Notes: generated by a model not told the origin, from the sequence alone. A stretch of 30,666 nt of DNA from Flavobacteriales bacterium (GCA_027033875.1 JALVKK010000171.1:1-30666); one strand, 5' to 3'. Shown: positions 3 through 15,997, numbered from the stretch's first letter. A program made the numbers and translations.

Positions 3-3000
3 GTAATCACAGGTGTGGTTACAGATGCCGGAAACGGAGAACCGCTTCCGGGTGTTAATATTGTTGTAAAAGGTACCCAAACGGGTGCCACAACAGATTT
101 TGACGGTAAATATACCATCAAAGCGAACAAAGGGCAAACCTTAATGTTCTCTTATGTTGGTTATAATACCGTTGAAAGGAAAGTAGGCGATTCTAATGTC
201 ATCAATGTACAATTAAAACAAGGTGATCAGTTAGAAACTGTTGTAATTACAGGTGCGCAAGGCATTAAAGAAAAACCAAAAGAGGTATCTTATGCACAAC
301 AGGTTGTTAAAGCTAAAGATTTGACTATTGGTAAAGACACCAATATTAAAACTGCTATTGCAGGTAAAGTTGCTGGGGTACAAGTTCATGCTCAAGCTGG
401 ATCTAAACTTGGACAATCTGGCAAAGTGTATTTACGTGGAGCAATCTCTGCTTTAGGTAGAAAAGAAGCAATTTATATTGTTGACGGCGTTGAAACCAGC
501 CCCGATAATATTGATATGGAAAACGTAGCTTCAATCAACGTACTAAAAGGACCTGCAGCAGTTTCATTATATGGTTTAAGAGGTGCTGATGGTGTAATCA
601 TTGTTACTAGCAAATCAGGTAAGAAAGGATCTTTAAGTGTTGAATTATATAATAACACAACCTTTGAAAAGGTAGCTTATTTACCTAACTATCAAAATGA
701 ATATGGTCAAGGATATAGGGGCGCTGCTGAGTTTGATACTTTTGATATGTCATCAGCTTCGAATTACCCTGCCGAATGGTCAGCTTTGAATGGCGGCCGA
801 TATATTAAAAGACCTTATGCTGATGAAAGTTGGGGACCTAAATTTGATGGCGAAGATTACTTTCCTTGGTACACATGGTGGCCAGGTGAAAATAACAGTA
901 ATAAATACTTTGCAAAACCTCAAAAATATGAAGCAGCCCCTAACAATGTTAAAGATTTTTATAATACTGGTGTCAACACCAAATCCGGTGTAGCTATCAG
1001 TGGTGGTAGCGATAAAGCCAAAGGCCGTATTTCTTTTTCTAAAAACGACATAAAAGGCTTGATTCCCACTACAACATTACAACAAAATATAGCTAGTGCT
1101 AAATTTAGTGTAAAACTTACTGATAAATTCACTATTGGTTTTAATGGAACATTATCTACCAAAGAAATAAATGGTGGTAGTGATTTTGATGATAGTTATG
1201 GAAATGCAATTTCTGGATCATTCAACCAATGGTTTGGTCGTCAGTTATCTACTAAAAAAATGAAAGAATTAAAAAACTTAAAAACAGTTAATGGTTATCA
1301 TGCCTCTTGGAACTGGTGGAGTCCTTATGGATATCTATTAGCGGACTTAGGTTATATCCCCGGAGGAGCTGCTGTTGAAAAACCTGTTTTTTGGTACAAT
1401 CCATACTGGCAATTAGAGCAAGAAAGTTATAATACAAATTATAATAGAGCAGTAGGTATTATTAACTTAGACTACAAACTTAGTGATAACTTAGATATTA
1501 AAGCTAGTGCATCTAAAACGACTAACACCTATAATTATGAAAGAAAAACCAATTATTTGATGCAATTTAATTCTAATGCTTTATCTTTTGGTTACACCGA
1601 TTATTTAAATTCGATGGAACAAACAAAAAGTTATTATGCTTTAAATGAATTAAAATTAATGGGAGATTTTAAACATCAATTTAATGATAATTTTAAATTA
1701 CAATTTATATTAGGAGGTAATTATAGAGGAGCTAACTATGAGAGATTAAAAAGCGCAATGTCAAGAAATGGCAAACCAACCTCAGCCGGTTTTGTAATTC
1801 CTGATGTTTACAGTTTCTCTAACTCTAAAGAAGTTATTAAACCGGAAAGTTTAATGAGAAGGTTTAAAGCTTTTACCGCATTTAGCCGTTTAAAATTAGA
1901 CTATAAAGACTTCTTATTTTTTACAGCCGATCTTTCTAACGTTTGGGATAGCCGATATGATTTATACGGTAGAGACAACTCTAATTCTTTTATGTTTGGA
2001 TCAGCCGGATTGAGTTTACTATTCTCAAAAGTATTAGAACTACCTAAATTTATTAACTTTGGGAAATTCCGTTTAAGCTATGCTGAAGTTGGAACCGAAA
2101 TTAATTCAAACAGTTTAAACCCTGGATATGTAATTGGTGCGTCAGACTATGATTCATATAACAATCTTCCATTAATGTATTTACCAAATACTATTGTTGA
2201 TCCAAATGTAAGACCTGCAACATCTTCAGCAATAGAAACAGGTATAGATTTGAAAATGCTTAATAATAGATTGATGTTCTCTTTAACTTACTTCAACGAA
2301 CACCGTAAAAACGAGATTATTAGAACTGAAATTCCTTATGAAAGCGGTGCGCAAGCTATCATGGCTAACGCAGGAGATGTCCAAAGAACCGGTTTCGAAA
2401 TTGAATTAGGTGGTGATATTATAAAAAAGGAAGATTTCGGTTGGCACATGGCAGTTAACTTCTCTAATCCTAACGTAGAAGTCATTAAATTAGCTGATGG
2501 ACAAGATAGTCAATTATTATCAAGAAGTTCATTTGGGGTTGTTTCTGTCTTAAATATGCCAGGGGAACCTTACGGACAACTTGTCGGTACCGGTATTAAA
2601 AAAGATAAAAACGGAAATAATATTATTGATCCTTCGACTGGTTTTTATGTTACTGAAGAAAATCAAAAGTTTGGTAGCATCTTACCCGATTTTAACGGAG
2701 GTATTATCAACTCATTCAGGTATAAAAATATAAACTTGGCTGCAACGATCAACTACCAAAAAGGTGGCAAATTTTTCAGTTTATCAGAGTGGTGGGGAAC
2801 TTACACTGGTGTATTAGCTGAAACCGCCGGAAACAATGACAAAGGTCATGAACAACGAGATGATGTAGCTAATGGTGGAGGTGTTCACGTTACAGGTGTT
2901 GACGAAGCAGGAAATGCAGTTGATATGTACGTAGAAGCACACGACTATTATCAACAACAATATCCTAGCTTAGCAGAAGGTTTCATTCACGATGCCAGTT

Positions 3001-3230
3001 ATATCAAATTGTCTGAAGTTAGCTTGAGCTATTCATTCCCTAAATCTCTTTTAGGAAAAAATATCAAAGGAGCTTCAATAGGTGTAGTTGCCAGAAATTT
3101 AGGTATGATTGCTGTCTCAGGCGACAATAAACATAACTGGGATCCTTCGGAATTCGGTTATATGTTTGGTGATGATGCCCAATTACCAGGAACTACCAGT
3201 TTTGGTTTCAATGTAAAATTAACTTTATAA
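3..3230 (+). CDS. SusC/RagA-family TonB-dependent outer-membrane transporter, 5'-truncated by the window edge
   Basis: Frame is open from position 3 (V-I-T-G-V-V-T-D). N-terminal CarboxypepD_reg-like segment (GEPLPGVNIVVKGT..TTTDFDGKY), TonB-box-like LETVVITG, plug motifs (IYIVDGV, NVLKGPAAVSLYG..GADGVIIVTSK), barrel ending in aromatic alternation FGFNVKLTL. Followed 13 bp later by a SusD. Confidence 0.95.
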   Translation, partial: VITGVVTDAGNGEPLPGVNIVVKGTQTGATTDFDGKYTIKANKGQTLMFSYVGYNTVERKVGDSNVINVQLKQGDQLETVVITGAQGIKEKPKEVSYAQQVVKAKDLTIGKDTNIKTAIAGKVAGVQVHAQAGSKLGQSGKVYLRGAISALGRKEAIYIVDGVETSPDNIDMENVASINVLKGPAAVSLYGLRGADGVIIVTSKSGKKGSLSVELYNNTTFEKVAYLPNYQNEYGQGYRGAAEFDTFDMSSASNYPAEWSALNGGRYIKRPYADESWGPKFDGEDYFPWYTWWPGENNSNKYFAKPQKYEAAPNNVKDFYNTGVNTKSGVAISGGSDKAKGRISFSKNDIKGLIPTTTLQQNIASAKFSVKLTDKFTIGFNGTLSTKEINGGSDFDDSYGNAISGSFNQWFGRQLSTKKMKELKNLKTVNGYHASWNWWSPYGYLLADLGYIPGGAAVEKPVFWYNPYWQLEQESYNTNYNRAVGIINLDYKLSDNLDIKASASKTTNTYNYERKTNYLMQFNSNALSFGYTDYLNSMEQTKSYYALNELKLMGDFKHQFNDNFKLQFILGGNYRGANYERLKSAMSRNGKPTSAGFVIPDVYSFSNSKEVIKPESLMRRFKAFTAFSRLKLDYKDFLFFTADLSNVWDSRYDLYGRDNSNSFMFGSAGLSLLFSKVLELPKFINFGKFRLSYAEVGTEINSNSLNPGYVIGASDYDSYNNLPLMYLPNTIVDPNVRPATSSAIETGIDLKMLNNRLMFSLTYFNEHRKNEIIRTEIPYESGAQAIMANAGDVQRTGFEIELGGDIIKKEDFGWHMAVNFSNPNVEVIKLADGQDSQLLSRSSFGVVSVLNMPGEPYGQLVGTGIKKDKNGNNIIDPSTGFYVTEENQKFGSILPDFNGGIINSFRYKNINLAATINYQKGGKFFSLSEWWGTYTGVLAETAGNNDKGHEQRDDVANGGGVHVTGVDEAGNAVDMYVEAHDYYQQQYPSLAEGFIHDASYIKLSEVSLSYSFPKSLLGKNIKGASIGVVARNLGMIAVSGDNKHNWDPSEFGYMFGDDAQLPGTTSFGFNVKLTL

Positions 3231-3243: not shown

Positions 3244-4704
3244 ATGAAGAAATTAATTTATTTCGTAGCGTTAGTAGTCCTAACACTTAACTCTTGTAAA
3301 AGAGTTGATTTTGGGGACATTAACATAGATCCATATCAACCTCAACAAGGCAACATAGATGCATTGATGAGAGGTGCTATGTCAAGTTTTGCCACTAATG
3401 GTGGTCGTGTTTACTTTTCAAATGCGACTCTTTACGCACAATATCAATCACAAACCACATACACCCAAGAACAAAGATATGTTCAATATGTCGGATCTTG
3501 GTACAGATATTATGTTGAACAGTTAAACAGTTTAAAAAGTATTGTTAACACAAATGATGATGTTAGAGGATCAACAGATAACATGAAAGCAATAGCTGAA
3601 TTAACAAGTGTTTTGATATACAAAAGAATTACGGACACCTATGGTGATATTCCATACTTTGAAGCACTTGATAATGACAATTTAACGCCAAATTATACTC
3701 CTCAAAGAGAAATTTATCTGGACTTAATTGCTAGGGCAAAAGCAGCTAGGGATTTATTAAATCCAAGCGCATTTACACCCGATGCCAATACTGATATTTT
3801 CTACGGGGGTGATATCCAAAAATGGGGTAAATTCGCGAACTCATTAATATTAGCATTAAGTATTCAATTATCTAATACTGATGCTGCTTCTTTAGCACAA
3901 AATGCTTTTAATGAAGCATTAGGTAACTCTTATGGTGTTATTGAAGATAATTCTGATAATTTAGTATTCACACCAAACGTAGCCGGTGGAGTTGTTAATC
4001 CTATTTCTAGATCGAGACCTGGTGACTTTAATGTTTCTAAAGAATTGACTGATGCATTAATGGGAAATCCCGGTCCTTGGGGAGCCGGCTTGAACGATCC
4101 TAAAAATGTTACGTCGAATCATACCTATGATAAACGTGTTTTAAAGTATACTGAAAATGGTTCTGATGGTTTGCCATTTGGATATACTTCTTATCCGGGA
4201 GCAGCTGACAGTATGAATGATATGTTTGATAGCGAAGACTCTCCCTTTACTCTATTTAGTGCCGCTTACACTTGGTTAAACCGAGCAGAAGGTGCTTTAA
4301 TATACAGTTCAGGAGAAGACGCCTCTACTATGCTAACAAATGGTATTGAAAAATCATATACTGCGGTTGGATTAACTCTATCAGATGCTAGCTCGTACGC
4401 AGCCATCAGAATAGCTGATGCTGGTAACGCAAGTATAGCTCCTGGAGGTATGGCACAAGTAATAGGTGAAGAAAAATGGTTTGCTTTATTCCCTGACGGA
4501 TTTGCCGCTTGGGCGGAACAAAGAAGAACAGGATGGCCTGCATTGCAACCTGCACCTGATGCGGTTAATGGCGGAGTAATACCTCATAGAATGCTTTATC
4601 CCTCAAATTCTAAAACGGTTAACCCGAACGGATGGGCACAAGGTGTTCAAGGTTTATTGCCTTCAGAAGACCTAAATACATCTGAAATTTGGTGGGAACA
4701 ATAA
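3244..4704 (+). CDS. SusD/RagB-family outer-membrane lipoprotein
   Basis: Lipoprotein signal (MKK..LTLNSC), TDTYGDIPYFEAL, DIFYGGDIQKWGKFANSL, EKWFALF..GFAAWAEQRRTGWP, IPHRMLYP and C-terminal IWWEQ are SusD-like motifs. Directly downstream of susC. Confidence 0.93.
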   Translation: MKKLIYFVALVVLTLNSCKRVDFGDINIDPYQPQQGNIDALMRGAMSSFATNGGRVYFSNATLYAQYQSQTTYTQEQRYVQYVGSWYRYYVEQLNSLKSIVNTNDDVRGSTDNMKAIAELTSVLIYKRITDTYGDIPYFEALDNDNLTPNYTPQREIYLDLIARAKAARDLLNPSAFTPDANTDIFYGGDIQKWGKFANSLILALSIQLSNTDAASLAQNAFNEALGNSYGVIEDNSDNLVFTPNVAGGVVNPISRSRPGDFNVSKELTDALMGNPGPWGAGLNDPKNVTSNHTYDKRVLKYTENGSDGLPFGYTSYPGAADSMNDMFDSEDSPFTLFSAAYTWLNRAEGALIYSSGEDASTMLTNGIEKSYTAVGLTLSDASSYAAIRIADAGNASIAPGGMAQVIGEEKWFALFPDGFAAWAEQRRTGWPALQPAPDAVNGGVIPHRMLYPSNSKTVNPNGWAQGVQGLLPSEDLNTSEIWWEQ

Positions 4705-4720
4705 AACTCATCTTTAACCT

Positions 4721-4757
4721 TATAAAAAAACCGCCAAATTTGGCGGTTTTTTTTATA
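4721..4757. terminator. Bidirectional intrinsic terminator after susD
   Basis: Perfect palindrome CCGCCAAATTTGGCGG flanked by an A7 and a T8 tract. Confidence 0.9.
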
Positions 4758-4827
4758 CTAAGTAAGCCAATACAAACAATAAGCAAAATTATATGTTAAA
4801 TAATTTAAACATCAAACAATAAAAACC

Positions 4828-4835
4828 TATCTTTG
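4828..4835 (+). promoter_or_regulatory. Bacteroidota -7 promoter element for gene X fragment 1
   Basis: TATCTTTG matches TAnnTTTG. The same octamer precedes the other two gene X copies. Confidence 0.6.
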
Positions 4836-4842
4836 TTAATTA

Positions 4843-4904
4843 ATACCGAATTTCGAATTCAATATAGTTCATTTCATTGAACTATATTCATTCAGTATCG
4901 GTAT
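4843..4904. repeat. Long imperfect hairpin in the leader of gene X fragment 1
   Basis: Perfect 11-bp arms AATATAGTTCA (4861-4871) / TGAACTATATT (4878-4888), extended by GAAT/ATTC and outer ATACCGA/TCGGTAT arms. Confidence 0.7.
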
Positions 4905-4982
4905 AAACAATTCTAAAAACATAAAATAGTTTTGGCTATTTTATATTAAGAATACGTATAATCAAAACAAACAACTAACAAA

Positions 4983-5030
4983 ATGACATCACCACACAAT
5001 TTTCATATCCCTGTTATGGGGGTGGCATAC
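4983..5030 (+). pseudogene. Gene X fragment 1: first 16 codons only
   Basis: MTSPHNFHIPVMGVAY matches the start of 20543-22339 (MNALHNFHIPVMGVAY). Similarity ends abruptly at 5030; the ORF runs on through unrelated sequence to 5180. Confidence 0.85.
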
Positions 5031-5168
5031 TATAATTACCTGCAAGCTACCAAAAAGAAAAATCCAAAACCAAACTCCTTTTCTTTTTTAAAATTCAAAA
5101 TAAGTCTATCTATATCTATAAGACAGGTAGTTATGTTTTATATCATAATGGTGAGCTTAAATCTGACT

Positions 5169-5208
5169 TTTTTACACTAAATGATTATTTTTATAAATTT
5201 TTACACTA
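5169..5208 (+). promoter_or_regulatory. 11-bp direct repeat upstream of the antitoxin remnant (possible operator)
   Basis: TTTTTACACTA at 5169-5179 and 5198-5208. The operator role is inferred from autoregulation of AbiE-type systems. Confidence 0.3.
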
Positions 5209-5232
5209 TATTTTTAGGCAGTATATAAAACA

Positions 5233-5409
5233 ATGAGAATTAAAAACATATCAACTCAATCAAGTAAAATCTTAACCTACTTTAACGAGTTAGGACAAGA
5301 GTGTTTTACTTATGCTGATGCTGTTAAGGTTTTACCCAATTCAAGAAATAGCGCCTTGAAAGAATTATTGAGTGATATGGTAAAAAGAGGCCTCTTAATG
5401 CGTTTGAAA
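5233..5409 (+). pseudogene. N-terminal ~59 aa of an AbiEi-like (type IV TA) antitoxin, winged-helix region
   Basis: ISTQSSKILTYFNE..CFTY..ALKELLSDMVKRGLLMRLK resembles the N-terminus of Bacteroidota AbiEi-family antitoxins as I recall them. The frame then reads 7 unrelated codons to a stop at 5433. Confidence 0.7.
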
Positions 5410-5639
5410 ATTTGTTGGAAAAACATCAAATAGACATAGAATTTTATATTGCTGATTTTATAAAAAAATGTGAAAACAAAGGTATAAATCCCTCAAATTT
5501 TCATTCAAAACTCAACCAAAGATTACCACAATACAAAGCCCGTTGGCAGAAGTCTATGGCAGATCAAATTCAAAATTTACCGGATTTTGAAACTGTGTTG
5601 CGTGGAACAATGCGTCATTTAAAAAAATTAGAAGTGTAA
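5410..5639 (+). pseudogene. C-terminal ~75 aa of an AbiEii-like nucleotidyltransferase toxin
   Basis: LLEKHQIDIEFYI..F..KCENKG..P..FH.KL.QRLPQYKARWQKSMADQIQNLPDFE..RHLKKL resembles the C-terminus of the cognate toxin. No catalytic N-terminal half (KGGT / SEDLDF-type motifs) is present, and there is no proper start. Confidence 0.65.
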
Positions 5640-5649
5640 AATGAAACCC

Positions 5650-5685
5650 CTGTAGGCAACACATATATAATACATAGCGGAGTTC
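5650..5685 (+). other. Possible left arm of an attC-like (integron-cassette-type) palindromic element, right arm missing
   Basis: CTGTAGGCAAC-ACATATATAATACATAGCGGAGTTC begins ~10 bp after the toxin stop. It resembles from memory the left arms of cassette-bounding repeats in Bacteroidota. No complementary arm is seen downstream. Confidence 0.35.
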
Positions 5686-5749
5686 TACTGAAAAGTATTG
5701 CTCTCAAATTTAATCTAAAATAAAATCTTAGACTTCAAAATTAAAACCC

Positions 5750-5757
5750 TATCTTTG
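5750..5757 (+). promoter_or_regulatory. Bacteroidota -7 promoter element for gene X fragment 2
   Basis: TATCTTTG 27 bp upstream of the ATG at 5785. The context AAAACC(C)TATCTTTGTTAATTAAT is shared with 4822-4844. Confidence 0.65.
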
Positions 5758-5784
5758 TTAATTAATTAAAAGAATAACAAACAA

Positions 5785-6066
5785 ATGAACTCTCCCCACA
5801 ATTTTCATATTCCCGTTATGGGGGTTGCTTATACTATTGACACGCCTTTAAAGGTCGCACCGTTTGGTATCGATTCCGTTATTTCACTTGTCGATAATGT
5901 TTTGCTGGAAAAATTGCGGGCAAAGTATAGTGAAAAATTTAACTTACCCTACAAAGAAATTTCACAGAAAGCCGAAGATTATATGGCTAAACGTATCACG
6001 GCTTATTTGAACTTAATCAATAAATTGACCATAGAAAAATTTGAAGAACAGAAAAACGGTTTTTAA
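5785..6066 (+). pseudogene. Gene X fragment 2: first ~93 codons
   Basis: Aligns without gaps to the N-terminus of 20543-22339 (HNFHIPVMGVAYTI..PLKVAPFGIDSVISLVDNVLLEKLR.KYSEKF.LPYKEIS.KAEDYMAKRITAYL) with many synonymous differences. Stops at TAA 6064-6066. Confidence 0.9.
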
Positions 6067-6606
6067 ACAAGCAGATTATATTATAATTATATACCTGATT
6101 GGGGTATTATAAATGCCTATAAAGCATCTTGGTTTGGAGGTGGTGATAACGGTAAATTTTATGGTAATCAAGCCTTACTTACCTATGGAGAAATGTTACT
6201 AATTCAAGCGGAAGCAGAAGCTAGAGTAAATGGTGTAAGTAATGGTGTTGACAAACTTAATGATTACTATAATCTACTTGGTGCCGGTTATACCCCGCAA
6301 GGTGGAGATATGGGATTTGGTCTAGGATATCCTACCAGAACAGCCGCAGATTATGCAACTCTTAAAGATTTCTTAACTGACGTACTTCAAGAAAGATATC
6401 TATATTTTATTGGTGACTTTGAAGCATTTGTTGATCATGCACGTGTTAACGGCGATGCCGATGTTGACAGTAGTTATATGCAATTAAAATCAGGCTTCAC
6501 AGGAAACCCAGTAAGGTTCCTTTATCCACAGGTTGAAATTGATTCCAATGATAATATCCCCGCTACCATACCTGATATTAACGCACCATTACCTATTTAT
6601 AACTAA
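6067..6606 (+). pseudogene. 3' fragment (~179 codons) of a second SusD/RagB-family gene
   Basis: Frame is open from 6067 (TSRLYYNY...). LLTYGEMLLIQAEAEAR, VLQERYLYFIGDFEAFVDHAR and PVRFLYPQVEIDSNDNIP are SusD C-terminal motifs. No signal peptide, N-terminus or partner SusC. Confidence 0.8.
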
Positions 6607-6629
6607 GCCTAAATAATTTAGCAATGAAA

Positions 6630-6668
6630 AAAAGAGGCTGTCTCAAAAATATCGAGACAGCCTCTTTT
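6630..6668. terminator. Bidirectional terminator-like hairpin between the susD fragment and the convergent T9SS gene
   Basis: Perfect 15-bp arms AAAAGAGGCTGTCTC / GAGACAGCCTCTTTT with a 9-nt loop. Confidence 0.85.
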
Positions 6669-6686
6669 ATATAAAACTATTTGCTT

Positions 6687-8492
6687 TTATTCTTTGATAA
6701 ATTTCACTGTTGAAATTTTTTCACCGGCTTTTACACGCATCATATAGACACCGTTTTGCAAATCGGCAATGTTTAAAATAACTTGCTTTTGGTCAGGCGC
6801 CAAATATCGTACTTCTTGTCCTAAAAGATTAGTGATACTGATAAAATCAATATTTGAATCGGCACTGACATTTAAGACGTCGGTAGCAGGGTTCGGATAG
6901 AATTTGAATGACAACTGTTGGTAGTCTTCAACACTGAGAGCATCATCGGTTAAATAAAATAGAGATGTTCCTATATTGTCATTTTTATAATCCCAAGTTC
7001 TTAACCAATAATCATGTCCGGCAGTTAGACCGGAAACGGTTTTTACTTCATAAGGAGAGGAAAATCCTAAAATGTTAATGGATCCACAATAGATATCAGA
7101 ATTGGCGGTTGCACTGTTATAAATAGCAAATGAGAATGCTGACCAGTCCCCGGCATCATTTGAATGATGTACTTTAACAACGCCTGATGAAGGCGCTGTA
7201 AATTTGTACCAAACATCACCACCTTGATAATTAGCATTGGGACCACTACCTCCACAACTTGGTATGCTGTTTATAGGATGCGAACTCGTACTAAAAGTAT
7301 TATCAGCAGAAGTCAATATGAACAAAGAAGCATTTTCAGGTTGTACATTAATATCAATGGCATATGCAGCTTCATCATTACCTTCAATTTTGGCAAGATA
7401 GAATGGCATAATACCAAAATCATCATTATAATAATCCCACATTCTGATGTAATAAGTATCACCGGCATTTAAGTCACCTACCATATGAGGAATAAATAGA
7501 TTCGCATTATTATTCATTATTCCGCCACAAACAACAAGCGTTCCATTATACGCATTATGATAAATGGCATACCCCACTATGCCTATACCGTAACCGGTTC
7601 TCATGATACTAATTGCACCTGTACTGGGCGCGGTAAACTTATACCAAACATCACCACCTTGATAACCGGTACAACCAGGGTTCCCCGGAGAGTTAGTAGC
7701 GCCTATATTATTAAAATAATTCATTTGAATGGTACTGTTATCTCTTGGATCTGCTAAGGTAATTGTTCGGGGGTGGGTATTAAAATCATTCCAAGCTTTA
7801 TCAAAAGTAAAAGTATAACGATACCCATTTCCGGGCCAGTTAGCAGCATCTATATTATTATTTGCCGTTGTTCTGGAAATTGTAGGATTTGAACCGGAAG
7901 ACGTAACACTGATAAACGTAGTGTTAGTCCCATCATAATAATTAAAGCCTATTGATGCATTTAAATTGTTTCCGCTATCGCAATGTCCATAAAAAAATTC
8001 AATTTCATTGGAAGTTTCTCTTAATTTCAAACCAAAGCTCATATCGTGAGCACTGTCATTATAACGTGAAATATTTTTCCAATGAACTATAAAAACTCTG
8101 TTTGGTGCCGTACCAACTGTTTCATATGCAATATAACCATTATTGGCAGAATATAATATTAAATCATCCCACAAAGGAGCAATCATATTTTTTCTACCGT
8201 TAGATGTAGAAGCTAAATCATTTATTAAACTAATATTATTTTCTGTAAAAGATATGGCTCCGTTAACACCTACAGTACAAGTAGTAAATTTTTTACCACC
8301 GTAATAAAAGTCAAAACCGATGGGTACACCGGTTTGTTCTTGTTCGTCACCTGATGTCCAAAGGGTCGTTGCCGAACTACCCGGCATAGGATAACTCGAC
8401 AGACCACTTCGTGTAAGCGTATAATAATCCACTTGCGCTTGAAGGTTAAACATCAAGATGAATAAAAACGTGAATAAAATAGCTCTTTTCAT
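6687..8492 (-). CDS. T9SS (type A CTD) secreted protein with an N-terminal beta-rich domain and two tandem 'GDVWYKFTAP' domains
   Basis: Signal peptide (MKR..LQAQ). C-terminal T9SS sorting domain (FYPNPATDVLNV..GVYMMRV..TVKFIKE). Two ~145-aa repeats containing YQGGDVWYKFTAPS.G and Y..R.WDY.ND. Confidence 0.88.
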   Translation of the reverse strand: MKRAILFTFLFILMFNLQAQVDYYTLTRSGLSSYPMPGSSATTLWTSGDEQEQTGVPIGFDFYYGGKKFTTCTVGVNGAISFTENNISLINDLASTSNGRKNMIAPLWDDLILYSANNGYIAYETVGTAPNRVFIVHWKNISRYNDSAHDMSFGLKLRETSNEIEFFYGHCDSGNNLNASIGFNYYDGTNTTFISVTSSGSNPTISRTTANNNIDAANWPGNGYRYTFTFDKAWNDFNTHPRTITLADPRDNSTIQMNYFNNIGATNSPGNPGCTGYQGGDVWYKFTAPSTGAISIMRTGYGIGIVGYAIYHNAYNGTLVVCGGIMNNNANLFIPHMVGDLNAGDTYYIRMWDYYNDDFGIMPFYLAKIEGNDEAAYAIDINVQPENASLFILTSADNTFSTSSHPINSIPSCGGSGPNANYQGGDVWYKFTAPSSGVVKVHHSNDAGDWSAFSFAIYNSATANSDIYCGSINILGFSSPYEVKTVSGLTAGHDYWLRTWDYKNDNIGTSLFYLTDDALSVEDYQQLSFKFYPNPATDVLNVSADSNIDFISITNLLGQEVRYLAPDQKQVILNIADLQNGVYMMRVKAGEKISTVKFIKE

Positions 8493-8567
8493 AACAATAA
8501 GAATTTAAGGATTAAATTTTATATCAAAAATAATAAGAGAATTATTGCAAAAACAATAAAATTCACA

Positions 8568-8617
8568 AACTGCATAAACTAGTTTATAAACGACATAAAT
8601 TAATATATGAACGACAT
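8568..8617. promoter_or_regulatory. Three direct repeats at 21-bp spacing upstream of the T9SS gene (LytTR-like operator)
   Basis: AACTGCAT (8568), AACGACAT (8589), AACGACAT (8610). Confidence 0.45.
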
Positions 8618-8726
8618 TATTACAGATTTACAGACCGGTAAATTGAGGAGAAAAAAAATGAGATAAATCTGTAAAATTCGGAAGAAAAAACATAATTTCT
8701 ATAATTCAAATTTCAGATTAATACAT

Positions 8727-8757
8727 AAAAAAACCTGCCAAAATAGATTGACAGGTT
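8727..8757 (-). terminator. Intrinsic terminator of rpmE2
   Basis: The minus strand reads AACCTGTCAA-tctat-TTGGCAGGTT-TTTTT, a 10-bp stem with one G-U pair followed by a U tract. Confidence 0.8.
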
Positions 8758-8781
8758 GTAAAATTATGTTTTATAATCGGT

Positions 8782-9033
8782 TTATTTTTTAAACTTGGCG
8801 TATTTTCTTTTAAATTTATCAATACGTCCTGCTGTATCAACCAATTTCATTTTTCCGGTATAGAACGGGTGTGAAGTTCTGGAAATTTCCACTTTTACCA
8901 AAGGGTATTCAACACCTTCCACTTCAATTGTTTCTTTAGCTTCAGCGGTTGAACGGGTTAAATAAATCTCTCCGTTTGACATATCTTTGAATGCAACCAT
9001 TCTATAATTTTCGGGGTGAATGCCTTTTTTCAT
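8782..9033 (-). CDS. rpmE2: 50S ribosomal protein L31 type B
   Basis: [40 protein letters not shown]; no CxxC motifs. Confidence 0.97.
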
Positions 9034-9068
9034 CGTCTTATATTTTTGATTTCCTTATTTAGAGTGTG

Positions 9069-9076
9069 CAAATTTA
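9069..9076 (-). promoter_or_regulatory. -7 promoter element of rpmE2
   Basis: TAAATTTG on the minus strand, ~35 bp upstream of the start codon. Confidence 0.6.
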
Positions 9077-9120
9077 TAAACTTTTTTTTAATTGACAATA
9101 ATATTGTTGATTTTTTTAAT

Positions 9121-9129
9121 GGGGGGGGG
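9121..9129. repeat. G9 homopolymer tract
   Basis: Nine consecutive G in an AT-rich divergent intergenic region. Confidence 0.9.
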
Positions 9130-9258
9130 ACTTCTAAAATCTTAAATCGTCAAAACTTGTTCGATATTCAAAATATAGAAGTTGAAGTAATATAATAGAA
9201 ATTAGAAGTGTTAAGCAGTTATCATAAAACGAAACAATTACTCACTCTTCACTCCTCA

Positions 9259-9321
9259 AACATTATAAACATTATGAACATTATGAACATTATAAACATT
9301 ATGAACATTATAAACTTTTAA
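9259..9321. repeat. 9-bp tandem repeat (AACATTATR x6 plus one degenerate unit)
   Basis: Units start at 9259, 9268, 9277, 9286, 9295 and 9304, with degenerate AACTTTTAA at 9313. Confidence 0.92.
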
Positions 9322-9349
9322 CTAAATTGCAGTTTCAAAAACAAAGGCA

Positions 9350-10636
9350 ATGCAAATAGACGGATTTTCAAAATTATCAAAAAAAGCTAAAATTGATTGG
9401 TTATTACAAACGTATTTTAACAATGATAATACTGCTCGTCAAATTTTATGGCAATATTGGCACAACGACAAAGCCCTTCAAAAACTCCACGACGGCTTTA
9501 TTGAAAATACCATTACAAATTATTATCTGCCTTATGCCATAGCGCCAAATTTTTTGATAAATGGCAAAATGTATGCCATACCAATGGCAATTGAAGAAAG
9601 TTCCGTAGTGGCGGCAGCCTCCAAAGCCGCCAAATTTTGGTTAGACAAAGGCGGTTTTAATGCAGAGGTTATCAATACGGTCAAAACCGGACATATTCAT
9701 TTTGTTTACACCGGCAAAACAACCGATTTGATTCAATTTTTCAGACAAAATCGTACTAAAATTTTGGACTCGGTTGCCGGTATCCAAAACAATATGCAAA
9801 AACGCGGAGGCGGTATAAAAGATCTAAATTTGATAGACAAAACGACTGCCATGTCCGATTATTATCAAATTGAATTTCAGTTTGAAACAGCCGATGCCAT
9901 GGGGGCTAATTTTATCAATTCGGTCTTAGAAGAAGCCGCCGATACCTTGCAAACATTGGCACAAAAAGAATTATCCGGAGATTTACAAGTTTTGATGCGT
10001 ATTTTGTCCAACTATACACCGGATTGTCTTGTAAGAGTTTCGGTTAGTTGTCCGGTTTCGAAATTGAAAAGTGATGAATTATCAGGCGAAAACTATGCCC
10101 TAAAATTTGTAAAAGCAGTCAATGTTGCCGAAGTAGAACCATATAGAGCCGTAACCCACAATAAAGGAATAATGAATGGCATCGATGCGGTGGTTATTGC
10201 CACGGGTAACGATTTCAGAGCCGTTGAAGCCAATGCGCACGCTTATGCCGGCAAAAGCGGACAATATACGTCTTTGTCTCATGCCGAAATAAAAGACGAA
10301 ATTTTCCGGTTTTGGATAGAAATGCCTTTGGCAATAGGAACGATAGGTGGTATAACGGCTATACACCCTTTAACGCGTTTTTCGTTGCAATTGCTTCAAA
10401 ATCCAACCGCAAAAGATTTGATGCAAATCATAGCGTCGGTAGGTTTGGCACAAAATTTTGCCGCTGTCAATTCGTTGATAACAAGCGGTATCCAAAAAGG
10501 ACACATGAAAATGCACCTCAACAATCTTTTGACGTTCCTGCAAGCCTCACCGGAAGAAAGACAACGAGCAGAACTATATTTTGCCGACAAAAAAGTCAGT
10601 TTCAAAGCCTTAAAAGATTTGTTGGGACGCCGGTAA
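9350..10636 (+). CDS. mvaA: Class II hydroxymethylglutaryl-CoA reductase
   Basis: ENTITNYYLPY, PMAIEESSVVAAAS, DAMGANFIN, ILSNY, THNKGIMNGIDAV.IATGNDFRAVEA, GLAQNFAA, GIQKGHMKMH. Confidence 0.95.
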   Translation: MQIDGFSKLSKKAKIDWLLQTYFNNDNTARQILWQYWHNDKALQKLHDGFIENTITNYYLPYAIAPNFLINGKMYAIPMAIEESSVVAAASKAAKFWLDKGGFNAEVINTVKTGHIHFVYTGKTTDLIQFFRQNRTKILDSVAGIQNNMQKRGGGIKDLNLIDKTTAMSDYYQIEFQFETADAMGANFINSVLEEAADTLQTLAQKELSGDLQVLMRILSNYTPDCLVRVSVSCPVSKLKSDELSGENYALKFVKAVNVAEVEPYRAVTHNKGIMNGIDAVVIATGNDFRAVEANAHAYAGKSGQYTSLSHAEIKDEIFRFWIEMPLAIGTIGGITAIHPLTRFSLQLLQNPTAKDLMQIIASVGLAQNFAAVNSLITSGIQKGHMKMHLNNLLTFLQASPEERQRAELYFADKKVSFKALKDLLGRR

Positions 10637-10671
10637 TCAATAAATTATATTATTATTTCAACTATTTTTAT

Positions 10672-10679
10672 TATATTTG
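10672..10679 (+). promoter_or_regulatory. -7 promoter element of the FG-GAP gene
   Basis: TATATTTG ~60 bp upstream of ATG 10739. Confidence 0.5.
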
Positions 10680-10738
10680 TAATAAAATACAACACTGCTT
10701 ATTACAATAAACAATAAGCATATTAAAAAATTAATATT

Positions 10739-12106
10739 ATGAAAAGAATATTTACATTTGTTTTACTATTTGTCAGCGTAACTGTTTTTGCACAGTTTCA
10801 AAGAAATGTTGTTGCCAATCTAACCGGAGCATACGGCATTTTGGAAAAAGATGTTAATGGCGATGATATTTTAGATTTGCTTGCTGCCGGTGAATCCGGC
10901 AATATTTTAGCCTATTTTATCAACGACGGTAGCGGTAATTTTACCCAAACGACTATTGACAGCAATTTTACAGGCGCTCGTTTTATTGACGGTGCCGATT
11001 TTGACAATGACGGTGATATGGATTTTGTTGCTACCGGCACTTCCGATTTGGTTTGGTACTTAAACGATAACGGCACTTTTGTCAAAACGGTGATTGAAAC
11101 CGGACTTAATGACCCGCGTCAGGTGCGTACTTCGGATATAGGAGATTTAACAAATCCCGCAACACCTGACGGTGATATCGACTTGGGAGTTTTGGTTAGT
11201 GGCGAAAATACCGTATCGGTTTATTTTAATGACGGGGCTAATAATTTTAGTCGTTTTAATATCATCAGTATCAATTCACCGCGATATTTACACGGTGGTG
11301 ATTTTGATTCTGATAATTCTCCCGATTTTTTAATTTCATCGTATAACGGAGACGGTACCAACGACGAAGACAATATATTTTGGTATTATGTCGGTAATTG
11401 GGGGTTGACGCAGGGTGGTGTCGTTGCCAGTAATTTTCACGGCGCTTTCGGTGTCGAAGGCGGTGATATCGATTTGGACGGCGACGACGATGTTATTGGT
11501 GCCGCTTATATCGATAATGAAGTAGCTTGGTTTGAAAACCTAAATGGGGACGGTTCGTCTTTTACCAAACACATTATCGATGATAATTTACCCGGTGCTT
11601 CTTATGTACATTGGTTGGATATTGACGATGACGGTGATAAAGATATCGTTGCTACCGGTTACGGCGATACTTCCGGAAACAATTCGCAAGTGGTTGTTTA
11701 CTATAACGACGGCGCTCAAAATTTTACCAAAACGCTTATCGATGATACTATTCAAGGAGCCAATACATTTACCGTACAAGATTTTAACGGCGATGGTAAA
11801 AACGATATAGCTGTAACAGGCTCGGTTTCCAATGAAGTTGTTGTGTATATTTACAACCCCGGCAATGTAAAACAAAATTCGATTACCGGTTTGTCGATAT
11901 ATCCCAATCCGGTAAAGGACGTTTTGCATATTGCACCGGCAGACAAAATTCAACAAATTCAAATATTTGATATCACCGGACGACAAGTTCTTTCAACAAA
12001 TCAAACTGTTATCGATGTTTCAAAATTGGACAAAGCCTATTATTTGGTTAAAATGATTTTGAAAAATCACAATATCATAACTAAAAAAATTTTGATATTG
12101 AAATAA
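10739..12106 (+). CDS. FG-GAP/VCBS-type repeat (beta-propeller) protein with T9SS C-terminal sorting domain
   Basis: Signal peptide. About seven D-x-N/D-x-D-G-D-x-D repeats each followed by W/Y-Y/F-x-N-D-G. CTD IYPNPVKDVLHI..IFDITGR..YLVK..KKILILK. Confidence 0.9.
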   Translation: MKRIFTFVLLFVSVTVFAQFQRNVVANLTGAYGILEKDVNGDDILDLLAAGESGNILAYFINDGSGNFTQTTIDSNFTGARFIDGADFDNDGDMDFVATGTSDLVWYLNDNGTFVKTVIETGLNDPRQVRTSDIGDLTNPATPDGDIDLGVLVSGENTVSVYFNDGANNFSRFNIISINSPRYLHGGDFDSDNSPDFLISSYNGDGTNDEDNIFWYYVGNWGLTQGGVVASNFHGAFGVEGGDIDLDGDDDVIGAAYIDNEVAWFENLNGDGSSFTKHIIDDNLPGASYVHWLDIDDDGDKDIVATGYGDTSGNNSQVVVYYNDGAQNFTKTLIDDTIQGANTFTVQDFNGDGKNDIAVTGSVSNEVVVYIYNPGNVKQNSITGLSIYPNPVKDVLHIAPADKIQQIQIFDITGRQVLSTNQTVIDVSKLDKAYYLVKMILKNHNIITKKILILK

Positions 12107-12124
12107 AACCCGATACAAATCCGG

Positions 12125-12946
12125 TTATAGCATTTTTAAAAAATCGATTTCTTTTTGGGTCAAATGTCGCCAATGTCCGCGTTTGAGATCTTTTTTGGTC
12201 AGTCCGGCAAACAAAACACGGTCCAGTTTGATGACATCATATCCCAGATACTCGAATATCCGGCGAACAATACGGTTGCGACCCGAGTGGATTTTGACCC
12301 CTACTTCGTTGTGCGAAACGCCTTTGATATACGAAATTTCATCGACTTGAACATGTCCGTCATCTAACTCTAAACCTGCTTTGATTTTTTCCATATCCGA
12401 AGGCTTCAGGTTTTTATCAAGTTTGACATGATAAATCTTTTCAACACGATGCTTAGGGTGTGTCAATTTTTTAGCCATATCACCGTCATTGGTAAAAAGC
12501 AGTACGCCGGTAGTATTACGATCCAATCTGCCTACGGGATAAATTCGTACGGGAGCAGATTTTTCGACTAATTCCATAACTGTTTTGCGTCCTTTTTCAT
12601 CTTCGGTGGTAGTGATAAAATTTTTTGGTTTATTGAGCAATACATAGATTTTTTTTTCGGGTTTGATGGTTTCGCCGTTAAATTGAACTTTATCTCCCGA
12701 TTGTACTTTGTAACCCATTGTCGTAACGACTTTGCCGTTGACACTGACAGCGCCTATCTTTATCAATTCATCTGCATCACGTCGCGAAGCTATTCCGGCA
12801 TGAGCCAAATATTTGTTTAGACGCATCGCCACGTCTGTCTTAGGCTCACCGGTTTTCTTAACAGTAGATTTTTTAAGTCGCGGTTTGTAATTTTTTGATA
12901 TAAAATTTTTCTTTGGCTTGTTATTATGTTGGGATTTCTTTTTCAT
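12125..12946 (-). CDS. rluB: RsuA/RluB-family rRNA pseudouridine synthase with S4 domain
   Basis: MRLNKYLAHAGIASRRDADELI (S4), LNKPK, PVGRLDRNTTGVLLFTNDG, GRNRIVRR. The exact paralog (RluB vs RluF) is uncertain. Confidence 0.9.
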   Translation of the reverse strand: MKKKSQHNNKPKKNFISKNYKPRLKKSTVKKTGEPKTDVAMRLNKYLAHAGIASRRDADELIKIGAVSVNGKVVTTMGYKVQSGDKVQFNGETIKPEKKIYVLLNKPKNFITTTEDEKGRKTVMELVEKSAPVRIYPVGRLDRNTTGVLLFTNDGDMAKKLTHPKHRVEKIYHVKLDKNLKPSDMEKIKAGLELDDGHVQVDEISYIKGVSHNEVGVKIHSGRNRIVRRIFEYLGYDVIKLDRVLFAGLTKKDLKRGHWRHLTQKEIDFLKML

Positions 12947-13006
12947 TTGGCAATTGTTATGAATTTTATAAACATTCCACTAGCAAGCTTGCGAGCAAAC
13001 TTGCTG

Positions 13007-13014
13007 CAAAGATA
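13007..13014 (-). promoter_or_regulatory. -7 promoter element of the pseudouridine synthase gene
   Basis: TATCTTTG on the minus strand. Confidence 0.55.
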
Positions 13015-13075
13015 TGACAATTTGACATAATCATACGGGCTTATCATTGCAAATAATTCTATGGCATATTTATTG

Positions 13076-13083
13076 TAAATTTG
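13076..13083 (+). promoter_or_regulatory. -7 promoter element of the Trx-Grx/groES operon
   Basis: TAAATTTG 23 bp upstream of ATG 13107, which supports that start over the TTG at 13047. Confidence 0.6.
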
Positions 13084-13106
13084 TCGGTGAAAAATTATTC
13101 GTAAAT

Positions 13107-13679
13107 ATGAATTTTGTTGTTGTAAAGGATTATCAAGATATCGTTAAAGACAGTGATACCAAAAAATTCATTTTAATTTACAAAAAAGGAACTGTCAATT
13201 CCGATTGTGCCTATGAAGCCTTAACAAAAATTAAAGACGCTAGGGTTTTGACGGTTGATGTCAATTCGGTTAGGAATGTTCACGAGCATTTCGGGGTCGA
13301 TTCGGTTCCCTCGTTGGTGGTAACAACCGGTGCCAAAGTAGAAAATATCATCAAAGGTTGTCAAACTCCGGCATATTTTGATCAAATTATTCACGAAAAA
13401 AAAGCTGTCTATACGACACCGGACAAGCGTCAAGCACAAAAACGAGTAGTGGTGTATTCGACTCCGACCTGTCAATATTGCAACAAATTGAAGCAATATT
13501 TTAACAAACACGGAATCAAATATACAGACATAAATGTTGCGAGCAATCAACAAGCCGCTGCCGAAATGGTTCGTAAAAGCGGACAACGCGGTGTACCGCA
13601 AACCGATATAAACGGACAAATCATAATCGGTTTTGATACGGCAAAATTGAGCAGAATATTAAATATACCAACAGAATAA
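13107..13679 (+). CDS. Thioredoxin-like domain fused to a glutaredoxin (NrdH/YruB-like) domain
   Basis: N-terminal Trx-like features (FILIY..NSDC..VLTVDV..FGVDSVPSLV). C-terminal VVVYSTPTCQYC..SGQRGVPQTDINGQIIIGFD. Confidence 0.85.
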   Translation: MNFVVVKDYQDIVKDSDTKKFILIYKKGTVNSDCAYEALTKIKDARVLTVDVNSVRNVHEHFGVDSVPSLVVTTGAKVENIIKGCQTPAYFDQIIHEKKAVYTTPDKRQAQKRVVVYSTPTCQYCNKLKQYFNKHGIKYTDINVASNQQAAAEMVRKSGQRGVPQTDINGQIIIGFDTAKLSRILNIPTE

Positions 13680-13700
13680 ATAACTAAAAACCAAAATAAT

Positions 13701-13988
13701 ATGAGAGAATTACAACCATTAAACGAGAATGTTTTACTGGAATTAACCGATGAATTTACCGAAGAAAAAACAGCTTCGGGTATCATTATTCCCGACAGCG
13801 CCAAAGAAAAACCCTCATTGGGACGTGTTTTGGCATTAGGCAATATTGAAGATGCCGCCGTCAATCCGGGTGATGTCGTAATGTATAAAAAATTTGCCGG
13901 CAACAAAGTGGAATTAGACGGCAAAGAATATCTGATTTTGCCTTATGCTGACATTTTGGCTAAAATCAGTGAAGTAGATGCTATTTAA
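13701..13988 (+). CDS. groES: Divergent stand-alone GroES (Cpn10) paralog
   Basis: Mobile loop EKTASGIIIPDSAKEKP, VNPGDVVMYKKFAG, ELDGKEYLIL..DILA. No groEL adjacent; a terminator follows directly. Confidence 0.88.
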   Translation: MRELQPLNENVLLELTDEFTEEKTASGIIIPDSAKEKPSLGRVLALGNIEDAAVNPGDVVMYKKFAGNKVELDGKEYLILPYADILAKISEVDAI

Positions 13989-14008
13989 TCAAACTTTGTA
14001 AAATTTTA

Positions 14009-14050
14009 TAATAAGAAACCGCTCCGGCTTGCCGGAGCGGTTTCTTATTA
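14009..14050. terminator. Bidirectional terminator between groES and ssb
   Basis: Perfect 20-bp inverted repeat TAATAAGAAACCGCTCCGGC-tt-GCCGGAGCGGTTTCTTATTA. Confidence 0.9.
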
Positions 14051-14078
14051 CAGTATTTTATCGAGTAACAACACCAAC

Positions 14079-14420
14079 CTATTGATTGTTACCTCTCAAT
14101 AACAAAACTTCATTGACTAAAACTTCAGTTACATACCGACGTTGACCGTCTTTGGTTTCATAACTGCGATTGGTCAGTTTGCCTTCGATGGCAATTTCTT
14201 TACCTTTATCGACAAAATTTTCGATAATTTCTGCGGTTTTGCCCCAAGCCACCAAATTGTGCCAATAAGTCTGTGTAATACGCTCACCATCTTTATTGAG
14301 ATAAGTCTCATTGGTTGCGATAGAAAATTTGGCAACTTTTCTGCCGTTTTCTAAAGTTTTGATTTCAGGTACTTGACCTACGTTTCCGATTAATTTTACA
14401 CTGTTTTTTAAAGTACTCAT
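14079..14420 (-). CDS. ssb: Single-stranded DNA-binding protein, OB fold only (no acidic C-terminal tail)
   Basis: NSVKLIGNVG..PE..FSIAT..T.WHNLVAWGKTAE..KG..IAIEGKL.NRSYE.KDG..RYVTEV; ends LRGNNQ. Confidence 0.93.
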   Translation of the reverse strand: MSTLKNSVKLIGNVGQVPEIKTLENGRKVAKFSIATNETYLNKDGERITQTYWHNLVAWGKTAEIIENFVDKGKEIAIEGKLTNRSYETKDGQRRYVTEVLVNEVLLLRGNNQ

Positions 14421-14536
14421 AATAAAAAATTTAATGGTTAATAAATAATTAAAATAGTGTCATATAAAGTATGTGATTATATGCTTGATACAACACTGAC
14501 GTGCATCGATTCAAACTTTCGATTGATTTGATAGTG

Positions 14537-14600
14537 CAAATGTATGACAGCCGGCAAATTTTATTCGGTTATTAAGCGTTTACTTACGAAAATAGTCGTT
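14537..14600 (-). promoter_or_regulatory. ssb promoter: -7 element plus helically phased boxes
   Basis: TACATTTG (14537-14544, minus strand). CG dinucleotides at 14566, 14577, 14587 and 14597. Confidence 0.45.
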
Positions 14601-14774
14601 TGCAAACATTTGTATTTGGTTTTTGTATTGATATTCAACACATTATAACAGCCGAAGTAATTGTAAATAAATGATTGTTTTTGTTGGTGTATATTATACC
14701 CATATATTATAGGCAACGTTTCAACAAACTTTCAACTTAGGTTATTGAGCTTGCCGAAATATAACTTTTTACTT

Positions 14775-15680
14775 TCAACTATCGTTGTGCGTTAATTCCT
14801 TAAACAACTGCTCCAGATTTTTATTTTTTTGACGCATTTGTAAGATTTTAATGCCTTGTTCTTGAGCAAAATCAAAAATAAGCGGTCGCATATCATCTTG
14901 AGTTTCAAACGCCAAACACCAGATATGCTCATAAATATTTTCGGCAGCTGATATATGCGGTAACCGGTCTAAAAATTCGCGCTCGATTCTGATATCAAAT
15001 TCCACTTCGATAATCTGCTGTTGTCCGGATTGCAATGTTTTTAAAGATTCATCAGCCATTATTTTACCTTTATCTATTATCAATACACGATCAGCCAAAT
15101 GTTCTACTTCTTGCATAATATGCGAAGATAAAATCAAGGTTTTGTCACGCCCCAAATTTTTGATCAATTGCCGGATATCTACCAATTGATTAGGGTCAAG
15201 TCCGGTAGTAGGCTCGTCTAATATCAAAATATCAGGATCGTGAATTAAAGCGGCAGCCAATCCGACGCGTTGTCGATAACCTTTGGAGAGCTGTCCTATT
15301 TTTTTATGGGCTTCCGGTGTCAATCCGGTGTCGGCAATCACTTGTGCAATCCGATTTTTGTCCGTTTGAAAAATCGAAGCGACAAAATCTAAATATTCAC
15401 GCACATACATATCCGTATATAACGGATTGTGTTCCGGTAAATATCCGATATGTTTTTTGATTTGTAACGGATTGTCAGATACATCTACTCCCACTACTTT
15501 AACCTCTCCGCTATCGGGTTTGATATAGCCCGTCATAATTTTCATCAAAGTGGATTTTCCGGCTCCGTTTGGACCTAGCAGTCCGACTATTTCTCCTTGA
15601 CCTATATGAAAAGAAACATTGTCTAAAACTTTTTGAGACCCGTAATATTTTTGAATGTTATGTAGTTCTATTCTATTCAT
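14775..15680 (-). CDS. gldA: Gliding-motility-associated ABC transporter ATP-binding protein
   Basis: GPNGAGKST, GYLPEHNPLY.DMYVREYL, LTPEAHKKIGQLSKGYRQRVGLA, DEPTTGLDPNQL, and the C-terminal DMRP.IFDFA..G.K.LQ..QKNKNLE characteristic of GldA. Confidence 0.9.
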   Translation of the reverse strand: MNRIELHNIQKYYGSQKVLDNVSFHIGQGEIVGLLGPNGAGKSTLMKIMTGYIKPDSGEVKVVGVDVSDNPLQIKKHIGYLPEHNPLYTDMYVREYLDFVASIFQTDKNRIAQVIADTGLTPEAHKKIGQLSKGYRQRVGLAAALIHDPDILILDEPTTGLDPNQLVDIRQLIKNLGRDKTLILSSHIMQEVEHLADRVLIIDKGKIMADESLKTLQSGQQQIIEVEFDIRIEREFLDRLPHISAAENIYEHIWCLAFETQDDMRPLIFDFAQEQGIKILQMRQKNKNLEQLFKELTHNDS

Positions 15681-15936
15681 TTTTTTTGTAAACTCTGTAA
15701 ATTAATCCGGCTATATATTGTGCCGATATAAAAGCAATGACATTGTATAAAACGGATATCCATGAAAAACCGATGTGAAAATGAAACTTGTTGTAAATGC
15801 GAAGTATAATGATAAAGGCCACTGGTATGTGAATGGCAAGCATCCAATCTCGTGATTTGAATTTGCTTTTGACACGCCAAAAACCAAATGGAAAGGCTAA
15901 TAAAAACACAATAACGGCAAAAGTTATGTTATTCAT
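15673..15936 (-). CDS. Small hypothetical membrane protein (~87 aa)
   Basis: Three hydrophobic segments with PFGFWR..W.LAIHIP pattern. The stop overlaps the gldA start. ATG 15936 is preferred to 15963. Confidence 0.7.
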   Translation of the reverse strand: MNNITFAVIVFLLAFPFGFWRVKSKFKSRDWMLAIHIPVAFIIILRIYNKFHFHIGFSWISVLYNVIAFISAQYIAGLIYRVYKKNE

Positions 15937-15997
15937 AGAATAATTTTTGCAAATGTAAGTCAAATATAATAATTTTGAGAGAACAAAAACAATTCTG

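Follow-up and report, generated by a model that had tools for sequence, protein, structure and literature searches.

Partial copies of an uncharacterized gene, here called gene X, were examined in a 30,666-nucleotide (nt) stretch of DNA from a Flavobacteriales bacterium (GCA_027033875.1, JALVKK010000171.1:1-30666; hereafter the window). The window is one whole contig of a metagenome-assembled genome (MAG) of 348 contigs (G000), derived from samples that hold several related strains and species, and it was compared with 13 congeners, which makes 14 species of the genus in all. An earlier reading made from the sequence alone (the sequence-only reading) had placed starts of gene X at positions 4983, 5785 and 20543, and all three copies, designated A, B and C, were located at these positions. 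Copy C is the resident full-length gene. Copies A and B are 5′ stubs, both of which lie in a 2-kb junkyard (4705 to 6686) together with the relic of a deleted AbiE toxin-antitoxin module and the tail of a SusD gene. The features are as follows, with strand given where one applies:

3-3230 and 3244-4704, + strand: SusC1 and SusD1, the intact cassette genes (Pfam Plug/CarboxypepD_reg and SusD-like_2, respectively).
4724-4753: terminator hairpin, core CCGCCAAATTTGGCGG, the start of the conserved X-side flank.
4786-4840, + strand: copy A promoter segment, box TATCTTTG at 4828-4835; 82% identical to the spacer and promoter of congener G002.
4841-4958: insertion of 118 nt in copy A, which contains a hairpin and lies between the -7 box and the leader.
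4959-5023, + strand: stub A, comprising the leader and the first 41 nt of an X allele; ATG at 4983.
5131-5678, + strand: AbiEi-AbiEii toxin-antitoxin relic, with an internal loss of about 1.2 kb at about 5410.
5717-5784, + strand: copy B promoter and A-rich leader, box TATCTTTG at 5750-5757.
5785-6064, + strand: stub B, the first 280 nt of an X allele; an open reading frame (ORF) of 93 codons with its ATG at 5785.
6065-6606, + strand: SusD-prime relic, the C-terminal third (last 180 codons) of a second SusD, in the same frame as stub B.
6687-20256: chromosomal block of 13.6 kb between the cassette site and resident X, annotated with Pfam.
20487-20542, + strand: copy C promoter and leader, box TATCTTTG at 20510-20517.
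20543-22339, + strand: resident gene X (copy C), full length, 598 residues.

The housekeeping promoter of Bacteroidota has a -7 box of the form TAnnTTTG, and a box of this type, marking a predicted promoter, was found upstream of an A-rich leader in all three X copies and in the congeners. The earlier statement that each copy keeps both promoter and leader held for copies B and C; in copy A, the box is split from the leader by the 118-nt insertion, and the arrangement from promoter to start is no longer intact. When this insert was left out, the -62 to -1 region of copy A was 89% identical to that of G002 and 87% identical to that of G008. The insertion was found in no other X upstream region, and contigs that skip 4841-4958 are present in sequencing runs X1 and X2; it may be a low-copy miniature insertion element. 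Its hairpin is long and imperfect, and one related hairpin was detected elsewhere in the genome (C228:1744-1807). The homology of stub A to X ends at coding nt 41-48, and over 48 nt stub A differs from copy B at 9 positions and from copy C at 11. For copy B, homology to other X upstream regions sets in only about 55 to 65 nt before the ATG, and no terminator hairpin was found upstream of this copy. The corresponding onset for copy C is at about 20487-20498; at about -55 its promoter is fused to sequence from upstream of an amino-acid permease gene, and downstream of X the synteny HAD-methylase-h227-TK-Alr is kept. A mosaic test of the promoter segments (-62 to -1) gave no clear signal.

The frame of stub B has no internal stop, and its stop codon (6064-6066) is made by the join to SusD-prime. 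At 6064|6065, nt 280 of X meets the middle of a SusD gene base to base, with no filler and no more than 2 to 3 shared nt. The SusD-prime relic is 46 to 54% identical to the SusD that adjoins X in congener G003. In run X1, a second contig extends to the left of 6065 with an open SusD frame that aligns with the G003 SusD, while an 811-nt contig to the right of 6065 is common to both forms. As judged from these contigs, a sibling strain with an intact SusD-prime co-occurs with the stub B form in run X1, which suggests that the join is recent. The join was not found in a scan of metagenome contigs, and exact-protein look-ups of stub B, the SusD-tail ORF and the neighboring type IX secretion system (T9SS) protein returned no match. 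A hairpin lies 3′ of the SusD tail at 6625-6670, with repeats of 90 to 93% identity on contigs C173, C70 and C180, and looks like a shared terminator-like palindrome.

The junctions were recovered from assemblies other than that of the window. An independent ENA scaffold (L119) is colinear with positions 4625-5866, with 1 mismatch in 1,242 nt, and extends from the SusD1 3′ end to the beginning of stub B, taking in the hairpin, promoter A, the insertion, stub A, the AbiE relic and promoter B. The join of stub B to SusD is bridged by a Logan contig of a different run (5956-6765, one mismatch), and the interval between these two contigs (5866-5956, inside stub B) is covered by read depth only, with no listed bridging contig. 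All four runs yielded contigs that lead from stub A, or from just after it, into the AbiE relic. The permease-to-X junction was recovered in two further assemblies at 99.7 to 99.97% identity. By L119 and the Logan contigs, an assembly chimera was ruled out for the named junctions.

The sequence-only reading had also proposed that the proteins are alike while their silent sites have diverged, that the copies are not recent duplications, and that they are orthologues from other lineages which were under selection until truncated; these proposals were borne out. Stub B and copy C are 78% identical over 268 nt; in the first 261 nt they differ at 60 positions, and at only 11 of 87 residues, with a third-position identity of 53% and a saturated synonymous divergence (dS). 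Over the same 261 nt, stub B is 89.3% identical to the X of G002 and 88.5% identical to that of G008, compared with 77.0% for the resident copy, and its third-position identity to the G002 and G008 alleles is 78% and 77%, respectively. Against G002, stub B has a nonsynonymous divergence (dN) of 0.045, a dS of 0.47 and a dN/dS of 0.10, whereas the dS between this genome and G002 is 1.25 to 1.8 for ordinary genes and 1.8 for resident X. Stub A matches both G002 and G008 at every one of its first 41 coding nt, and its leader plus start is 96% identical to that of G008 over 77 nt. In a maximum-likelihood tree, the resident copy pairs with the X of G011 (support 82/93), the closest relative by flanking genes, and stub B lies on a short branch beside G002 and G008 within a clade supported at 98/99. 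In-genome duplication was ruled out by these placements together with the dS values. From identity, dS and the tree, the stubs are confirmed as foreign alleles that were under purifying selection before truncation, the low dN/dS of stub B being the product of its history before truncation. In all four runs, X sequence at least 95% identical to stub B was several-fold deeper than the junk just upstream of it, which indicates that these samples also contain alleles closely related to that of the donor.

The chromosomal context of X in the congeners was compared with that in the window. A SusC/SusD-type pair lies directly upstream of X in G002, G003 and G007, and another, unrelated gene occupies this position in G008 and G011. 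HAD follows X in G002, G007, G008 and G011, and then methylase, h227, TK and Alr where the contigs reach. At least four unrelated cassette types were found directly upstream of X, the type differing in almost every species: that of G003 is related to the SusD tail at 6065-6606, that of G007 is unrelated, and G008 and G011 have a further type. Each of these unrelated cassette genes is followed, no more than about 20 nt past its stop codon, by the same hairpin and then by the X promoter and leader. The hairpin at 4724-4753 is this same hairpin, as found after unrelated cassette genes in G002, G003, G007 and G011, and it occurs once in the genome studied here. On its far side, the cassette is bordered by the str operon (S12, S7 and EF-G) in this genome and in G002, the only two for which this is shown. 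In this genome the cassette continues onto an adjoining contig (C31) that shares 127 nt with the beginning of the window and bears the cassette start, a 491-residue gene beside rpsL, as well as S12, S7 and EF-G. The SusC1/SusD1 pair has only 41 to 48% identity to the cassette at the same site in G002. Its read depth is about 77 in run X1 and about 0 to 5 in runs X2 to X4, though the latter hold the junk, and the Logan contig of SusC1/SusD1 stops at 4753, which is a branch point; strains that have the junk in common appear to carry different cassettes to the left of the hairpin and stub A. Beyond the genus, one genome was searched for each of 150 other genera, and X is carried by 51 of these. 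SusD beside X was not seen as a family-wide arrangement, and most other genera of the family have a divergent gene of about 400 residues upstream of X, from which the association with cassettes would be specific to this sub-clade.

In this genome, the adjacency of cassette and X is left only as stub A, and the 13.6-kb block separates the cassette site from resident X. The first part of this block encodes a T9SS protein, L31, HMG-CoA reductase, an FG-GAP protein, an RluB-like protein, glutaredoxin/thioredoxin (Grx/Trx) and GroES, and the rest encodes single-stranded DNA-binding protein (SSB), an ABC ATPase, an exonuclease, HIT, RpiB and the amino-acid permease. These are core genes; each occurs once in the genome and has a counterpart in the congeners. 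Gene order was compared between 6687-20256 and the corresponding contigs of four congeners (G003:C141, G009:C85, G002:C70 and G008:C199). The permease-L31 adjacency, which is kept in six congeners, is broken exactly at this block, and by gene order the block looks circularly permuted relative to that adjacency. An island between stub B and X was rejected, the genes being core and single copy.

From these findings we consider it probable, at roughly 0.8, that recombination at a cassette hotspot left the stubs behind as foreign relics. How they became stubs is a separate matter, and we give a little under even odds to the proposal that illegitimate joining took place on one side as the DNA entered, as opposed to full second copies having been deleted later. 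Under this proposal, the stubs would be remnants of the right-hand ends of segments that came from sister species. The point of departure is the order found in those species (SusC/SusD-type cassette, hairpin, X promoter and X), from which a donor fragment that spans a whole cassette would tend to take with it the donor's hairpin and X promoter and the first codons of its X. In the recipient, 13.6 kb of core genes lie between the cassette site and X, so that a homologous crossover in X would delete those genes. This could act as a survival filter: essential genes would be lost by crossover in X, and only imports resolved illegitimately would survive. The X-side end of the incoming DNA would be joined without homology, with a promoter-bearing stub left behind and the DNA to its right cut off. 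At least two imports would be required, with (i) the older one ending at nt 280 of X and replacing the front two-thirds of a resident SusD; and (ii) the newer one bringing SusC1/SusD1 and ending at nt 41 of X beside an AbiE module, which would later have lost 1.2 kb. The process would be one of sequential displacement, as ascribed to homology-facilitated illegitimate recombination, and a dedicated recombinase would not be needed.

Several observations weigh against this account. Its left-hand anchor would lie in the str operon, which is 84 to 88% identical across the whole genus with no imported tract visible. The dS values toward the cassette (S12 0.37, S7 0.71 and EF-G 1.25) form a gradient for which codon bias accounts; it lends no support to an imported tract, the operon being equally similar to all congeners. 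That two imports both ended within the first 280 nt of X would have to be put down to chance or to the survival filter. A full second copy of X may instead have been present and deleted later. Illegitimate recombination facilitated by homology is known from transformable bacteria and from conjugation in Escherichia coli (PMC3240628), but is not known from Flavobacteriaceae. Finally, stubs were found in only 1 of 14 species of the genus, by which the process would be rare.

One alternative is that whole foreign X copies were acquired with the cassettes and then trimmed to stubs by ordinary deletions in a small, streamlined genome. Two full-length X copies do occur on one contig in congener G012, deletion has been active at this locus (the AbiE operon lost about 1.2 kb) in a genome of only about 2 Mb, and the join of stub B to SusD resembles a simple deletion junction. 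This alternative requires, however, that the B-type X once lay upstream of a SusC/SusD pair, an order found in no relative, and placing it there already takes an import with a non-homologous end, which makes one event more; nor was a full-length B-type copy seen linked to the junk, although the contigs are too short to exclude one. We regard trimming by deletion as unlikely, though deserving of serious weight. Far less can be said for the stubs as functional elements, whether as decoy promoters, as a 93-residue N-terminal mini-protein or as portable homology pads for further cassettes. Stub B does have an intact box, a leader and an open frame with no internal stop, and, although the junk is shared, the cassette that precedes the hairpin and stub A appears to change from strain to strain. 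Against these stand the splitting of promoter A by the 118-nt insertion, the absence of a separate domain at residues 1-93 in the structural model of X, the lack of such stubs in any other genome examined (the 13 congeners and the 150 other genera) and the low dN/dS, which reflects pre-truncation history; a function for the stubs is judged quite improbable. Somewhat less implausible, though still improbable, is a related idea in which the hairpin-promoter-X-start module is a portable landing pad that operates without a recombinase, each imported cassette bringing a fresh copy, together with its corollary that a dead stub would still serve the next swap as the right-hand homology arm. The apparent strain-level turnover of cassettes to the left of stub A, with the junk shared, hints at such a pad; if it exists, marine Flavobacteriaceae would have a site that acts in the manner of an integron but lacks the integrase.

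The sequence-only reading itself had offered the 5′ end of X as a recombination anchor or integration site, or as a captured promoter that drives adjacent cargo. In a loose sense the first of these survives, in that the 5′ end marks the boundary of a swappable, recombination-prone locus, but an integration site for an element that carries a recombinase is not supported. The explanation at issue is that the 5′ end is the attachment (att) site of an integrative element which brought its own promoter and first codons, the stubs being the displaced original 5′ ends. Its appeal comes from the direct orientation of a stub, other DNA and a full gene with diverged 5′ ends, and from the AbiE module, typical mobile cargo, between A and B. 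It is at odds with several findings: as that reading had stated, there is no integrase in the window (none, and no transposase, among its ORFs by Pfam and NCBIfam), and no recombinase was detected among the main ORFs of the window or of C31; the stub ends are unequal (nt 41-48 versus nt 280) and share no core; the 13.6 kb from stub B to copy C consists of single-copy core genes; and neither the window nor C31 has tRNA genes. The sequence-only reading had named a lack of partial X copies at island borders in any other genome as grounds for refutation, and none occur in the 13 congeners or in the 150 other genera (one genome each), which tells against the proposal on its own terms. With no recombinase, no common core, no cargo and no recurrence, an integrase att site at X is largely refuted and is considered very unlikely. 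Promoter capture likewise found no support: promoter A is split and faces the deleted AbiE relic, and the frame of stub B stops at the SusD join. Least credible of all is a MAG assembly chimera, or a recent in-genome duplication followed by divergence. The 348-contig MAG and the mixture of related strains and species in the samples would favor a chimera; the colinear L119 scaffold, the bridging contig (5956-6765) and the contigs in four runs speak against one, and the tree and dS exclude duplication.

The locus was further compared with known systems. In SXT/prfC and dusA islands, as here, a displaced stub of promoter plus 5′ end accompanies a full gene that has a different 5′ allele, in direct orientation. 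Those islands encode an integrase, are bordered on either side by a fixed short core repeat with accessory cargo in between, and recur across genomes; none of these four features was found here. A closer likeness is to the sequential displacement arrays described for Vibrio type VI secretion system loci (orphan immunity genes and effector 3′ ends) and for Rhs and contact-dependent inhibition (CDI) loci (PMC5361080). In these, fragments nearest to the alleles of other lineages are piled beside a conserved flank, the joins are made without homology, no recombinase is involved, and newer modules push out and truncate older ones. The relics here are likewise closer to other lineages than to the resident copy by identity, dS and tree, and the join at 6064|6065 shows at most a few bases of microhomology. 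The present case differs in that the relics are promoter-bearing 5′ stubs of an enzyme-like neighbor gene and not immunity genes or the tails of toxins, a SusC/SusD uptake cassette makes up the cargo, the homologous anchor is one that we infer, and a single genome is involved.

The second close likeness is to Bacteroides, in which polysaccharide utilization loci (PULs) are swapped between conserved core-gene nodes by homologous recombination (bioRxiv 10.1101/2021.07.15.452266). Shared features are the different SusC/SusD cassettes at one site, the flank alleles that resemble another species, and the bounding conserved genes, which in both G002 and this genome are the str operon and X. Unrelated cassettes of at least four types were found at the one site with the same boundary hairpin. 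Whereas the Bacteroides double crossovers are clean and scarless, scars remain here, likely because X, the node on the right, now lies 13.6 kb from the site. The organisms also differ from the Bacteroides case: they are Flavobacteriaceae of marine origin, sampled in metagenomes of hydrothermal vents. As a case of scarring by recombination where SusC/SusD cassettes are prone to be swapped, the locus is clear but ordinary, and it reveals neither a new mobile element nor new recombination machinery. Its value is as a readable record of the movement of nutrient-uptake cassettes between close marine Flavobacteriaceae that share a habitat: the stubs point to the donor lineage and to the order of events, and they suggest that imports can be completed by non-homologous joining once a rearrangement has removed one homology arm. 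Such records are useful for the study of PUL turnover and of strain diversity in metagenomes, and they serve as a warning that a diverged partial copy of a gene in a MAG may be genuine.

Gene X has thousands of homologues, all unnamed, and no Pfam or NCBIfam family was matched. A structural model built from 24 homologues had a mean predicted confidence (pLDDT) of 66, and in it residues 1-93 form low-confidence strands and part of a helical insert. A fold search with this model returned weak matches (TM-scores of 0.2 to 0.3) to TIM-barrel enoyl reductases dependent on flavin mononucleotide (FMN), namely PfaD, DfnA-ER, FabK and FabX, and a profile search of PDB sequences returned nothing. The resemblance to FMN-dependent trans-acting enoyl reductases is weak, resting on a model, and serves as a lead only, with no function assigned. 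The C-terminal third of X has several invariant cysteines. In G012, the two X copies are full length and diverged (C42:7733-9520 and 43387-45165); they have 73% and 76% identity to the X of the window, and neither adjoins a SusD gene. In G010, X is split over two contig ends (C171:36853-36936 and C26:5840-6100) that overlap at codons 7-30, and this assembly break at the X 5′ end suggests strain-variable flanks there too.

AbiE is a type IV toxin-antitoxin system. At the relic, the AbiEi matches are weak and fall on 5233-5433 (Pfam and NCBIfam). The AbiEi N-terminus and a C-terminal tail remain, an intact pair of AbiEi antitoxin and AbiEii nucleotidyltransferase was not found at 5131-5678, and in three other genomes (G327, G022 and G065) the same two AbiE halves lie about 1.2 to 1.3 kb apart.

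Dispersed short intergenic repeats were detected at 9156-9336, 14713-14782 and 26824-26978, which reach as many as 55, 11 and 16 genomic copies, respectively, and five 9-nt tandem units at 9259-9321 are part of them. The repeats have no Rfam match. None was found at the stub breakpoints, their only sites being the spacer between L31 and HMG-CoA reductase, the SSB|ABC joint and 26824-26978. The spacer between rpsL and the cassette (C31:3650-4310) is a patchwork of these repeats, to which the tRNA-sized hits in that spacer correspond, and the repeats are often found at contig ends. The SSB|ABC joint carries a dispersed repeat, and gene order there differs from that of the congeners. More broadly, the order of the permease, L31, T9SS protein, HMG-CoA reductase and SSB genes changes in almost every species of the genus. 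At 13047-13988, a GroES gene, present once in the genome and without an adjacent GroEL, comes after a thioredoxin-like/glutaredoxin fusion gene; this pairing of Grx/Trx with GroES is also present in G002, G003 and G009.

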